From Escherichia coli (GTDB lineage Bacteria; Pseudomonadota; Gammaproteobacteria; Enterobacterales; Enterobacteriaceae), in the NCBI RefSeq assembly GCF_050320075.1, contig NZ_CP190018.1: DNA of 64,000 bases. One strand, written 5' to 3'. This document shows positions 13,260 through 34,882 of the stretch, piece by piece. Position 1 is the first letter of the stretch. Each line of letters opens with the position of its first letter. Below the pieces are notes generated by a model that saw only the letters and a list, made by a program, of their open reading frames with translations, had not been told where the DNA came from and searched no databases. The position numbers and the translations under genes are program-made.

Positions 13260-13871
13260 GTGATAGGCAGACTCAGAGGCATCATCATTGAAAAACAACC
13301 CCCGCTGGTGTTAATTGAAGTGGGCGGCGTAGGCTATGAAGTGCATATGCCGATGACCTGTTTTTATGAACTCCCTGAAGCGGGTCAGGAAGCGATCGTT
13401 TTCACCCACTTTGTGGTGCGTGAAGACGCGCAACTGCTGTACGGTTTTAACAATAAACAAGAGCGCACATTGTTCAAAGAGTTGATCAAAACCAACGGCG
13501 TCGGCCCGAAGTTAGCGCTGGCGATCCTCTCCGGAATGTCAGCGCAGCAGTTCGTTAATGCCGTTGAGCGTGAAGAAGTGGGGGCACTGGTGAAACTGCC
13601 GGGTATTGGCAAAAAAACCGCCGAACGCTTGATTGTTGAAATGAAAGACCGATTTAAAGGTTTGCATGGCGATCTCTTTACGCCAGCCGCCGACCTGGTA
13701 CTCACGTCTCCTGCCAGCCCGGCGACCGACGATGCTGAACAAGAAGCGGTTGCCGCGCTGGTGGCGCTGGGCTATAAACCACAAGAAGCAAGCCGCATGG
13801 TGAGCAAAATCGCTCGCCCTGACGCCAGCAGTGAAACATTAATTCGCGAAGCCCTACGCGCCGCGTTATGA
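13260..13871 (+). CDS. ruvA: Holliday junction branch-migration complex subunit RuvA
   Basis: [28 protein letters not shown]. Confidence 0.95.
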
Positions 13872-14890: not shown

Positions 14891-15020
14891 GTCGGATCGG
14901 TCGCTCGCGGCGCATCCGACACTGGCAGTGTTGCCTGATGCGCCGCTATTCGCGTCTTATCAGGCATATACCAGAGATAGCGAACCACAGGTCGGATAAG
15001 GCGCTCGCGCCGCATCCGAC
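14891..15020. repeat. REP/BIME cluster (three palindromic REP units)
   Basis: GTCGGATCGG...CGCATCCGAC, GCCTGATGCG...CTTATCAGGC and GTCGGATAAGG...CGCATCCGAC units between ruvB and znuB. Confidence 0.7.
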
Positions 15021-20111: not shown

Positions 20112-20141
20112 GCCGGATGAGGCGTTTTCGCCGCATCCGGC
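20112..20141. repeat. REP element
   Basis: GCCGGATGAGGCGTTTTCGCCGCATCCGGC palindrome between lpxM and pykA. Confidence 0.6.
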
Positions 20142-29205: not shown

Positions 29206-29531
29206 TGGCTTCTGATAATTCGATTGACCGTTGGCGGATGCGGCGCGAGTGCCTTATCCGCCCCACAACGCACCACAATCGTAGGCCTGAGAAGACGCAA
29301 CAGCGTCGCATCGGGCAATCAGCATCAAACAGTGCTACTCAAAACGTCAAACTACTTTCACCTAAAATACCCTTATCATCTGATATACAGTGAACACCTT
29401 ACCTGGCGGGAATTTCTTTGAATAACGGCCAACCGCCCCGCTTATTTGCGCATCTTTTGTCTCGATATACATTTTCTGACATCCTCATCCGCTATGCTAC
29501 AGGCACTAAAAATGGTTATTGAGGAGCAAAT

Positions 29532-30191
29532 ATGGCTAACTGGTTAAATCAACTGCAATCCCTGCTTGGGCAAAGCAGTTCTTCTGCCTCCTCGTCTGCG
29601 GATCAGGGATTGGGCAAACTTTTAGTGCCGGGCGCATTAGGCGGACTGGCTGGGCTGCTGGTCGCAAATAAATCAGCACGTAAACTTCTTACGAAATATG
29701 GCACCAACGCGTTGCTGGTTGGCGGCGGAGCGGTAGCGGGTACGGTGCTGTGGAATAAATACAAAGATAAAATTCGCGCGGCGCATCAGGACGAACCGCA
29801 GTTTGGCGCGCAAAGTACGCCGCTGGATGAGCGTACTGAACGTTTGATCCTTGCGCTGGTCTTTGCCGCTAAAAGTGATGGTCATATTGATGCCAAAGAA
29901 CGTGCGGCAATCGATCAGCAATTGCGTGAAGCCGGCGTGGAAGAGCAGGGGCGTGTACTCATTGAGCAGGCAATCGAACAACCGCTGGATCCACAACGCC
30001 TGGCTACCGGGGTCCGCAATGAAGAAGAGGCGCTGGAAATCTATTTCCTGAGCTGCGCGGCTATTGATATTGACCATTTTATGGAACGCAGTTACCTGAA
30101 TGCACTGGGTGACGCGCTGAAAATCCCCCAGGACGTTCGTGAAGGCATTGAACGCGATCTCGAACAACAAAAACGCACTTTGGCGGAATAA
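29532..30191 (+). CDS. yebE: DUF533-family inner-membrane protein YebE
   Basis: 219-aa [28 protein letters not shown]. Confidence 0.85.
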
Positions 30192-30354
30192 TTCCGCTCT
30201 CTGGATAGCCTGAAGTTGACTATTTCGGGCTATCCAGAACCGCACAGCCATTTGAGCAGGCTGATTTTCTCTGTCTGCATAACATTCGATATCCGCGCCA
30301 TTACCTGTCATCATGTGACTGCTCCCCGCCCTGTCGGGCGAGGCTTCCCACTTC

Positions 30355-31524
30355 TTAAGCCGCAACCGTCTGTGTGACGGATTTACGCTGGCCTCCATGG
30401 GCAGAAACGACGAGTCCCGCCGCTTGTAATTCCAGTATGCCCTTGCGTTTGATGTTGAGCGCCGCGTTGATATCGCGGTCATGTTCAACTCCACACTCTG
30501 GACACTGCCAGATGCGCTTATGTAATGGCATCTCCGACATTTTGTGACCGCAGCAGTGGCAGGTCTTCGAACTGGCGAACCATTGATCCAGTTTCACCAG
30601 ATGCACACCTTTCTCTGTTGCTTTGTATTCCAGTTTTGTGATGAATCCAGACCATCCAGCATCGCCTATCGCACGAGCCAGATGGTGATTTTTCATCATA
30701 TTTGCCATTTTCAATGTCTCGACAATTACCGCTTGGTTTTCGTCAACAATTGCGCGAGATAACTTGTGCTGGAAATCGGCACGGGCACCGGCTACCCGTT
30801 CGTGAACGGCTGCAAGTTGTATTCTGGCTTTGCGCCTGTTTGCGCTCCCTTTTTTCTTACGGGACAGTGCTTTCTGCTTCCGGCGCAGGTTGCGACTTGC
30901 ATTGATTAGGTGGCGGGGACTGGCAATTTTATTGCCGTCCGATTTGATGACAAAATGCGCCAGCCCCATATCCAGCCCTGTCACATTTGATATCAGTGCG
31001 GGCTTTGCCGGCGCTTCCATCCCGTCGTCACAGAGTAACGACGCGTAGTATTTCCCGGTTGCGCTGCGGCTCAACGTGATACTTTTCAGCATTCCCGTAA
31101 TTTCACGATGTAAACGCGCTTCAATCGGCAAGATTTTCGGTATTTTTATCGCAGCATCAAGGACTTTTATGCCAACACAATGGTAGCTCGATTGTCTGCC
31201 GTGTTTACTTTTAAAGGTAGGTTTACCTGCTTTCAGTTTCGGATTGAAAAAGTTAGAAAAAGCCACGTCGAGGTTAATTACCGCCTGCTGCAACGCAATA
31301 GAATCATATTCTTTAAGCCATCCATACCGGCGGGATTTCTTCGCCACTGCAAGCAGTGGTTTGAGGTCTTTACGCGGGTTTAAATTTACGCGGTGCCGCT
31401 GGTAAGAATGTTTCTTGATATGCAGAGCTTTGTTGTACGCAAAACGCACTGCACCGAACTGGGCGTTGATAAATTCAGCCTGTTCTGGTGTCGGGTAGAT
31501 GCGTACTTTTGTTGCTCTTAACAT
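30355..31524 (-). CDS. tnpB: IS200/IS605-family TnpB (OrfB; RuvC-like RNA-guided nuclease family)
   Basis: 389-aa ORF with an OrfB N-terminal HTH region, a RuvC-like core and a C-terminal zinc finger (CHCCGHKMSEMPLHKRIWQCPECGVEHDRDINAALNI). Confidence 0.85.
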   Translation of the reverse strand: MLRATKVRIYPTPEQAEFINAQFGAVRFAYNKALHIKKHSYQRHRVNLNPRKDLKPLLAVAKKSRRYGWLKEYDSIALQQAVINLDVAFSNFFNPKLKAGKPTFKSKHGRQSSYHCVGIKVLDAAIKIPKILPIEARLHREITGMLKSITLSRSATGKYYASLLCDDGMEAPAKPALISNVTGLDMGLAHFVIKSDGNKIASPRHLINASRNLRRKQKALSRKKKGSANRRKARIQLAAVHERVAGARADFQHKLSRAIVDENQAVIVETLKMANMMKNHHLARAIGDAGWSGFITKLEYKATEKGVHLVKLDQWFASSKTCHCCGHKMSEMPLHKRIWQCPECGVEHDRDINAALNIKRKGILELQAAGLVVSAHGGQRKSVTQTVAA

Positions 31525-31580
31525 AATCAGCGCTCATTGATATAATGCTTTTATTTTAACACTTTAGGTAAATATATCAA

Positions 31581-32006
31581 TTGAGTAATCATGATGATTT
31601 ACTGGCGGGATTTCTCCGCAAACGACACAGTGTCAGTAAGCTGGTTGTGCACCTTATTTTTACGACAAAGTATCGACGCAAACTATTCGACAGTCAGATG
31701 ATCGCTCAGTTGCGTGAGGCTTTTGGCTCCGCTGCGGCAAAGCTTGAATGCGAAATTATTGAGATGGACGGGGAGCCAGACCATGTACACCTGCTGGTTG
31801 CCTACCCGCCAAAACTGGCGGTCAGTGTGATGGTCAATAATTTAAAATCGGTATCATCACGTTTGCTACGCCAGCAGAACGCGCATTTACGCATGCAGAG
31901 TAAAACGGGGCTTTTGTGGTCGAGATCGTACTTTGTCTGTAGCACCGGAGAGGCAACGATTGAAACGCTCAGAGCCTACGTTCAGAGTCAGTCAACACCT
32001 GATTGA
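31581..32006 (+). CDS. tnpA: IS200/IS605-family TnpA (HuH Y1 transposase)
   Basis: 141-aa ORF with a TTG start; HuH motif HVHLLV and a catalytic-Tyr region WSRSYFVCSTG. Confidence 0.8.
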   Translation: MSNHDDLLAGFLRKRHSVSKLVVHLIFTTKYRRKLFDSQMIAQLREAFGSAAAKLECEIIEMDGEPDHVHLLVAYPPKLAVSVMVNNLKSVSSRLLRQQNAHLRMQSKTGLLWSRSYFVCSTGEATIETLRAYVQSQSTPD

Positions 32007-32135
32007 TCTTTAAAGCCCTGCGGGCTTTTCGCCTTATATCCCCGCCCGCATTGGGCGAGGGTTTACGGCGTTTTTCGCTAAGCAATGACTACCCTGTTTC
32101 GCTTGCATCTCCGGTGAGTTTTGCCACCCTTATAA

Positions 32136-34882
<2,747 letters not shown>

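Follow-up and report, generated by a model that had tools for sequence, protein, structure and literature searches.

The two matching hairpins at positions 30324-30343 and 32040-32060 of a 64,000-nucleotide stretch of Escherichia coli DNA (contig NZ_CP190018.1; the whole stretch is referred to here as the window) are very probably the known imperfect palindromes at the left and right ends (IPL and IPR) of ISEc46, here present as a complete copy. ISEc46 is an insertion sequence (IS) of the IS605 type, and this copy is located between yebE and ptrB. The hairpin motif, the boundaries of the element, the absence of a target duplication, the specificity for TTAG, the spacing of the ends, the complementarity between guides and cleavage sites, the intactness of the genes and the conservation of the ends are all directly observed. 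The finding itself is an ordinary one and already known: the palindromes belong to a named IS with published cleavage sites.

Hairpins and boundaries of the ISEc46 copy

Read directly on the plus strand of the window, the left hairpin (CCCCGCCCTGTCGGGCGAGG, 30324-30343) takes the form CCCCGCCC-TGTC-GGGCGAGG and the right hairpin (CCCCGCCCGCATTGGGCGAGG, 32040-32060) the form CCCCGCCC-GCATT-GGGCGAGG. Each has an 8-bp stem with a single mismatch, which is C.A on the plus strand and T.G on the minus strand, and predicted folding of the single-stranded DNA gives the expected hairpin at both sites on either strand. Both strands of the 64 kb were searched for CCCCGCCC-N3-7-GGGCGAGG, which gave exactly two matches, namely these sites, against a chance expectation of 0.00 in 100 dinucleotide-preserving shuffles, and no third copy was found in the window when one mismatch per arm was permitted. 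The motif is therefore shared with nothing else in the window, and the pair flanks tnpB and a gene for a Y1 transposase.

An earlier note on this DNA had described two matching hairpins on the same strand and in the same orientation, taken them for the subterminal palindromes of an IS200/IS605 element, and placed the ends of the IS just outside them. Direct reading, the motif search and single-stranded folding confirm the first point, the element is very probably ISEc46, and comparison with empty sites shows that the IS extends 9 nt beyond the left hairpin and 17 nt beyond the right one. The empty yebE-ptrB site of K-12 MG1655 reads ...CCTGTCATCAT|CTAAGCAATGACT..., and the window carries 1763 additional bases exactly at the bar. 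Another insertion, which lies inside yfaX, a gene of the IclR family, shares both ends with the copy in the window; when the yfaX flanks were rejoined in silico, the joined sequence found a contiguous match at 100% coverage in 3914 E. coli genomes. Neither E. coli insertion is accompanied by a target-site duplication. On the plus strand the IS begins with GTGACTGCT... at 30315 and finishes with ...GGCGTTTTTCG at 32077, and terminal inverted repeats are absent, as these two ends are not inverted repeats of each other.

The transposase gene, tnpA, of identical copies is named 'IS200/IS605-like element ISEc46 family transposase' by RefSeq and its Prokaryotic Genome Annotation Pipeline (PGAP). A published survey places ISEc46 in the IS200/IS605 family, IS605 group, subgroup IS605c (PMC9956272), and lists for it a left-end (LE) cleavage site TTAG, a right-end (RE) cleavage site TCAC, a TnpB protein of 389 aa and a length of 1766-1775 bp (PMC9956272 Table S1). 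The published TTAG and TCAC agree with the ends found here, which indirectly answers the check named in the earlier note, whether the reference ends of the matching IS contain these hairpins, and the published length fits 1763 bp (plus the 4 nt of TTAG). The yebE-ptrB insertion is common to 400 of 5426 complete E. coli genomes; in a spread sample of full-length copies, 7 of 8 stood at yebE-ptrB, and yfaX was the only new site.

Strand assignment, guides and cleavage sites

The tetranucleotide TTAG (CTAA on the plus strand) adjoins the 32077-side end at both E. coli sites, in a relative on the Salmonella spv plasmid and in a plasmid relative that lacks tnpA, whereas the flank on the 30315 side differs at every site examined (TCATCAT, ATCAAGG, TCCATA, GATCC and CAGTTT). 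A scan of representative genomes, with the exact right-hand hairpin and the adjacent GTTTAC as the query, gave 26 loci, from Enterovibrio, Photorhabdus, Xenorhabdus, Proteus, Endozoicomonas, Klebsiella, Vreelandella, Regiella, Phaseolibacter and two metagenome-assembled genomes (MAGs). Together with loci found earlier, these make up 33 distinct sequences of LE plus flank, and in 28 of them CTAA stands right after a linker of 16-17 nt, the fifth base being free.

Because TTAG abuts the tnpA-side end, the minus strand is the sense strand of tnpB, and the RE follows tnpB in this family, we infer from the sequence that the top strand of the element is the minus strand of the window, which would make the 32077 side the LE and the 30315 side the RE. 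On that strand IPL reads CCTCGCCC-AATGC-GGGCGGGG and IPR reads CCTCGCCC-GACA-GGGCGGGG. The earlier note was thus right that the hairpins share a strand and an orientation, but the sequence that the transposase TnpA would be expected to recognise is the complement of the one written there, CCTCGCCC-loop-GGGCGGGG. The parts of the element and its ends, in plus-strand coordinates, are as follows.

30315-32077, minus (putative top and active strand): complete ISEc46 copy, 1763 bp, from the K-12 and yfaX empty-site comparisons
30315-30323, minus: right-end tail, top strand AGCAGTCAC, whose terminal TCAC is the right cleavage site C_R, from the empty-site boundary and the published TCAC
30324-30343, minus: IPR, right-end imperfect palindrome with a T.G mismatch, 100% conserved in relatives of about 79% overall identity, and an 8-bp stem in the conserved RNA fold
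30344-30347, minus: putative right guide G_R, GAAG, directly 5' of IPR, from the sequence and the pairing rule of IS608
32040-32060, minus: IPL, left-end imperfect palindrome, recurring exactly in 26 loci of diverse gammaproteobacteria
32061-32077, minus: left-end 17-nt linker, top strand CGAAAAACGCCGT-AAAC, from the empty-site boundary; 16-17 nt in relatives, with variable sequence
32061-32064, minus: putative left guide G_L, AAAC, the last 4 nt of the linker, from the sequence and the IS608 rule
32078-32081, minus: TTAG, target and left cleavage tetranucleotide in the flanking DNA outside the IS, also the predicted target-adjacent motif (TAM) of TnpB, from the K-12 empty site, the 28 of 33 sequences and the published site

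Along the top strand, the LE is arranged as TTAG|CGAAAAACGCCGT-AAAC-IPL-AT... and the RE as ...GAAG-IPR-AG-CAG-TCAC|. In IS608, TTAC lies 19 nt 5' of IPL and TCAA lies 10 nt 3' of IPR; four guide bases 5' of the hairpin foot pair with the cleavage site, T-4 with the second and C-3 with the first; and two bases 3' of the hairpin (AG at the RE, A-10/G-9; AT at the LE) form triplets (PMC3201880). At both ends of ISEc46 the three expected pairs, at positions 1, 2 and 4 of the cleavage tetranucleotide, are present, T:A, T:A and G:C between TTAG and AAAC, and T:A, C:G and C:G between TCAC and GAAG. Furthermore, the AT (LE) and AG (RE) directly 3' of the ISEc46 hairpins are the IS608 dinucleotides, in the triplet positions. 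Relative to IS608 (TTAC/AAAG and TCAA/GAAT), the fourth pair is changed on both sides at both ISEc46 ends. Position -1 of the cleavage site was reportedly found by Barabas et al. in 2008 to pair with the fourth guide base.

Guide and target covary in a relative from Proteus, where AAAA occurs with the flank TTAT at 16 nt. The spacing is also asymmetric, with 17 nt at the LE, where the cleavage site lies outside the IS, and 9 nt at the RE, where it lies within, mirroring the 19 and 10 nt of IS608. A relative on a Klebsiella plasmid (L016) was set aside from the application of the guide rule, as its left cleavage site is not clear; its right end, GAAT...TCAA, fits.

If ISEc46 is mobilised in the manner of IS608, the minus strand of the window would become single-stranded as the top strand and both hairpins would fold, so that one monomer of a dimer of the Y1 transposase TnpA could bind each of them. 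The AAAC of the LE would pair with the TTAG that lies 17 nt 5' of IPL in the flanking DNA, and the GAAG of the RE with the TCAC that forms the tip of the IS, 9 nt 3' of IPR; this guide pairing would bring both cleavage tetranucleotides into the TnpA active site. The top strand would then leave as a circle and integrate 3' of another TTAG, duplicating no target bases. The guide of the TnpB-associated omega RNA would be the adjacent flank, and TTAG would be its TAM; with a flank-derived guide and this TAM, TnpB would cut the empty yebE-ptrB site after excision.

The two genes and the predicted omega RNA

Between the two palindromes lie two divergent genes, and the 3' part of one of them overlaps a predicted RNA.

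30355-31524, minus: tnpB, 389 aa, RNA-guided nuclease by its Pfam domains and homology to ISDra2 TnpB
31581-32006, plus: tnpA, 141 aa, Y1 HUH transposase read towards the LE, by Pfam Y1_Tnp and structure alignments
31518-31580, no strand assigned: divergent promoter-like sites in the 56-bp tnpB-tnpA spacer, matches of a consensus scan only
30295-30470, minus: predicted TnpB omega RNA, from its fold, consensus fold and conservation, with a presumed extent
about 30315-30470, minus: predicted omega RNA scaffold, which takes in the RE with the IPR stem and overlaps the 3' end of tnpB
30295-30314, minus: predicted omega RNA guide, top strand ATGATGACAGGTAATGGCGC

The product of tnpA matches the full Y1_Tnp profile of Pfam (1-121, E=5e-39), and its HUH motif (HVH) and YxxxQ tyrosine (YVQSQ) align with the solved structures of IS200/IS605 TnpA proteins, with E=5e-19 for IS608 TnpA. 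The start codon is apparently TTG (MSNHDD..., 31581-31592), with no obvious Shine-Dalgarno sequence, and TTG is also found in the Salmonella relative. The published table lists a Y1 protein of 102 aa for ISEc46 (PMC9956272), which differs from the 141 aa given here because the table uses an ATG start; the complete Y1 domain is obtained only with the TTG start, as annotated by RefSeq. In the spacer, the promoter-like sites score 11/12 on the plus strand (31518-31546) and 10/12 on the minus strand (31580-31553). A separate hairpin, AAAGCCC-TGC-GGGCTTT at 32012-32028, directly follows the tnpA stop codon, between tnpA and IPL, and may be the tnpA terminator. Beside it, 3' of IPL on the top strand, stands TAAGGCG, which also occurs in the Proteus and Klebsiella relatives.

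TnpB contains the Pfam domains HTH_OrfB_IS605, OrfB_IS605 and Cas12f1-like_TNB and matches the structures of ISDra2 TnpB (8EXA/8H1J) with E=4e-73. In the alignment of TnpB to its top match, 9yyg, the candidate RuvC acidic residues (GLDMG, VETL and HDRD) and the CxxC pairs of the zinc ribbon are conserved.

An omega RNA of the ISDra2 type spans the 3' end of tnpB and the RE and runs on into the flank, which serves as its guide; such RNAs are structured, about 100-150 nt long, and end at the IS boundary before the flank-derived guide. As IPR begins 12 nt past the tnpB stop codon, its transcript would presumably form the last stem of the omega RNA. The fold of the minus-strand RNA has a z of -2.85, and in it IPR forms a perfect 8-bp stem, a U.G pair replacing the mismatch of the DNA. 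The consensus fold for 8 relatives loses none of the predicted pairs in the 3' 90 nt, and the only changes within the IPR stem are C/U opposite G. The last 120 nt are 90-100% conserved, compared with about 75% for the gene body, and the ends are more conserved than the interior. Similarly, in the tnpA-less plasmid relative, which is about 79% identical, the 40 nt of the RE are 100% identical and the LE is nearly intact, against about 75% in the tnpB body; the LE of this relative was compared by eye, since the global alignment had free end gaps and left it unaligned. Together, these sequence comparisons fit, but do not prove, a dual constraint on IPR, as a DNA palindrome and as an omega RNA stem, with small divergence and little covariation. 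Within 29900-32500, the matches to snoR145 and mir-4662 returned by Rfam (E<=1) were rejected as chance.

Alternative explanations, relics and relatives

Several points weigh against the view of the hairpins as IPL and IPR of an IS608-like ISEc46. The spacing at the RE is 9 and not 10 nt, and that at the LE 16-17 and not 19 nt, as in IS608. The hairpins are nearly invariant in the close relatives found, so that there is little true covariation inside the ISEc46 lineage. One study termed the TnpA of ISEc46 N-terminally truncated (102 aa), and the Rfam scan of 29900-32500 (E<=1) gave no omega RNA family match. TnpA binding, strand-specific cleavage, the omega RNA and TnpB activity are presumed here by analogy, IS608 and ISDra2 being the models. 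Finally, the GC skew of the plus strand is positive throughout the window, which places the top (minus) strand of the IS on the leading-strand template, whereas excision and insertion in the IS200/IS605 family prefer the lagging-strand template (PMC5027513). The orientation is thus one that the family generally disfavours, although this is a tendency only, and one copy cannot test a bias. The orientation relative to replication might contribute to the stability of the yebE-ptrB insertion.

The left hairpin follows the tnpB stop codon by 12 nt (minus strand) and the right one that of tnpA by 34 nt (plus strand), and these positions, together with the stable, GC-rich stems, could indicate that the hairpins are intrinsic terminators of the two outward-reading genes and not transposase sites. 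However, the terminator scan gave no call at either site, the stems lack a T-tract downstream, and tnpA is already directly trailed by the hairpin at 32012-32028. Terminators would, in addition, leave the identical arms in the same orientation and the complementarity of guides and cleavage sites unexplained, and this account is highly unlikely. It is just as hard to credit that the plus strand is the active one, with the LE at 30315 and the RE at 32077. While the palindromes fold on both strands and the plus strand encodes tnpA, the sites examined all differ in the flank at 30315 and 28 of 33 sequences have CTAA at 32077, tnpB and the RE downstream of it define the top strand in the family, and the IS608 guide rule fits the minus strand only, with which the published TTAG and TCAC agree. 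An accidental flanking of the IS by host palindromes of the repetitive extragenic palindromic (REP) type has a negligible probability: REP-like sequences do occur at about 29225-29320 and elsewhere in the window, yet in 64 kb the hairpin motif stands only at the ends of the IS, the empty site of K-12 lacks it, and it accompanies the IS to further sites and to other species. The REP-like units at 29225-29320 (GGCGGATGCGGCG... and CGTCGCATCGGGC) lie in the yebF-yebE spacer, and more are found near 14908-15008 and 20112-20129.

A less remote, though still improbable, alternative is that the hairpins are conserved mainly for a function in RNA, as the omega RNA stem at the RE and, at the LE, as a structure 3' in the tnpA mRNA, recognition by TnpA being secondary or lost and the copy largely immobile. 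As RNA the RE hairpin is indeed perfect, U.G taking the position of the mismatch in the DNA, and its variants are C/U opposite G; it is 100% identical in the tnpA-less derivatives; and the single insertion site in 400 of 5426 genomes suggests little recent movement. Yet the LE hairpin lies outside the omega RNA and is nevertheless exactly conserved, guide included, at 26 loci across many genera. Its occurrence with the guide next to TTAG at different sites indicates transposition of the TnpA type, and the same arms are present at both ends, as TnpA dimers require. A role in RNA would supplement the assignment of the hairpins as IPL and IPR at the RE, and does not replace it.

A by-product of the comparisons is a set of 46-48 bp relics of ISEc46-like elements that contain a single hairpin, and which consist of the 9 nt of the RE (GTGACTGCT), one hairpin and the 17-nt linker of the LE. 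In most of them CTAAG or CTAAA follows, i.e. they usually still lie beside TTAG.

L040:7457-7503 and L041:3370-3416: relics in Phaseolibacter flectens (twice), LE-type loop
L027: relic in Regiella insecticola, LE-type loop
L043:1493-1538: relic in a prophage of E. coli FDAARGOS_944, RE-type loop (TGTC)
L044-L046:1501-1548: relics in E. coli plasmids beside yacAB, LE-type loop (GCATT)

The relic beside yacAB is present in about 200 E. coli plasmid records. The occurrence of both loop types, GCATT and TGTC, suggests deletion of the interior by recombination or template switching between the identical hairpins. It is conceivable, if doubtful, that the hairpins act in this way as short direct repeats, and that such events delete the IS interior and leave the 46-48 bp relics. 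Should the relics arise repeatedly or stay mobilisable, they would stand as a concrete intermediate form linking the ends of IS200/IS605 elements with REP-like repeats of a single hairpin.

The 38-bp plasmid matches that had appeared to be solo REs were rejected as such, being ISEc46 copies near hokD cut by insertions of IS3-family elements or IS1; the remnants adjacent to hokD comprise either 38 bp (RE tail plus hairpin, L011:2501-2538) or the 3' 816 bp (L013:1501-2316). In Candidatus Enterovibrio escacola, a genome with many copies, a 44-nt unit containing the LE hairpin and linker (CTTATAT-hairpin-GTTTACGGCGATATTG) is tandemly duplicated at the end of ISEc46-like copies (L019:~13574-13643 and L020:116-185). 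The E. coli plasmid p24AR0180A bears a decayed ISEc46 relative of 78% identity, and 5 nt beyond its RE there is another, related hairpin, CCCCGCC-ATCCGTAT-TGGCGAGG (L010:573-609), which looks like the remnant left end of another family member that was the target of the IS insertion. ISEc46 at the E. coli yebE-ptrB site also occurs in a contig of a Collinsella sp. MAG (L025), which is probably mis-binned E. coli DNA, and a near-identical full element in a Candidatus Paceibacterota MAG (L024) is probably due to contamination or mis-binning.

Beyond correct annotation, the significance of these results is small. They fix the exact boundaries of ISEc46 (30315-32077) and point to its active strand, its target and TAM, TTAG, and its predicted TnpB guide. 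The element follows the guide/cleavage rule of IS608, and this could aid the retargeting of TnpA or the use of TnpB. Only the single-hairpin relics are mildly new, as a small lead on how such elements decay.

Among known systems, the element agrees with ISEc46, as it is named in ISfinder, in the PGAP name of its tnpA, in TTAG and TCAC, in the 389-aa TnpB and in length, and nothing substantial differs. Among TnpA relatives, the more distant ones on a Klebsiella plasmid and from Proteus mirabilis have other GC-rich hairpins (TCCCCGTC...GGGCGGGGA; CCACG...CGTGG and CCCCG...CGGGG) in a like arrangement, with a single hairpin close to either end and both oriented alike; in the Proteus element, the two ends differ from each other by a compensatory change of A-T to C-G. 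The IS605-group elements IS609, ISEc41 and ISEc89 of E. coli share family, organisation and host with ISEc46, but their cleavage sites differ from it (TTAT/TCAA and CCAT/TCAA). ISDra2 from Deinococcus radiodurans, the model system for TnpB and its omega RNA, has a close TnpB homologue and an RE just after tnpB, and in both elements a guide RNA derived from the RE and a TAM equal to the TnpA target are expected; the target and TAM of ISDra2 is TTGAT, unlike the TTAG of ISEc46. With IS608 from Helicobacter pylori, the model for 'peel and paste' transposition of single strands, ISEc46 has in common a Y1 HUH TnpA, subterminal palindromes in the same orientation, the lack of a target duplication, cleavage at a distance 5' of IPL and close by 3' of IPR, 4-nt guides, and AT and AG after the hairpins. 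The two differ in hairpin sequence, in the cleavage sites (TTAG and TCAC in ISEc46, TTAC and TCAA in IS608), in spacing (17/9 against 19/10 nt) and in gene orientation, tnpA and tnpB being divergent in ISEc46 and co-directional in IS608.

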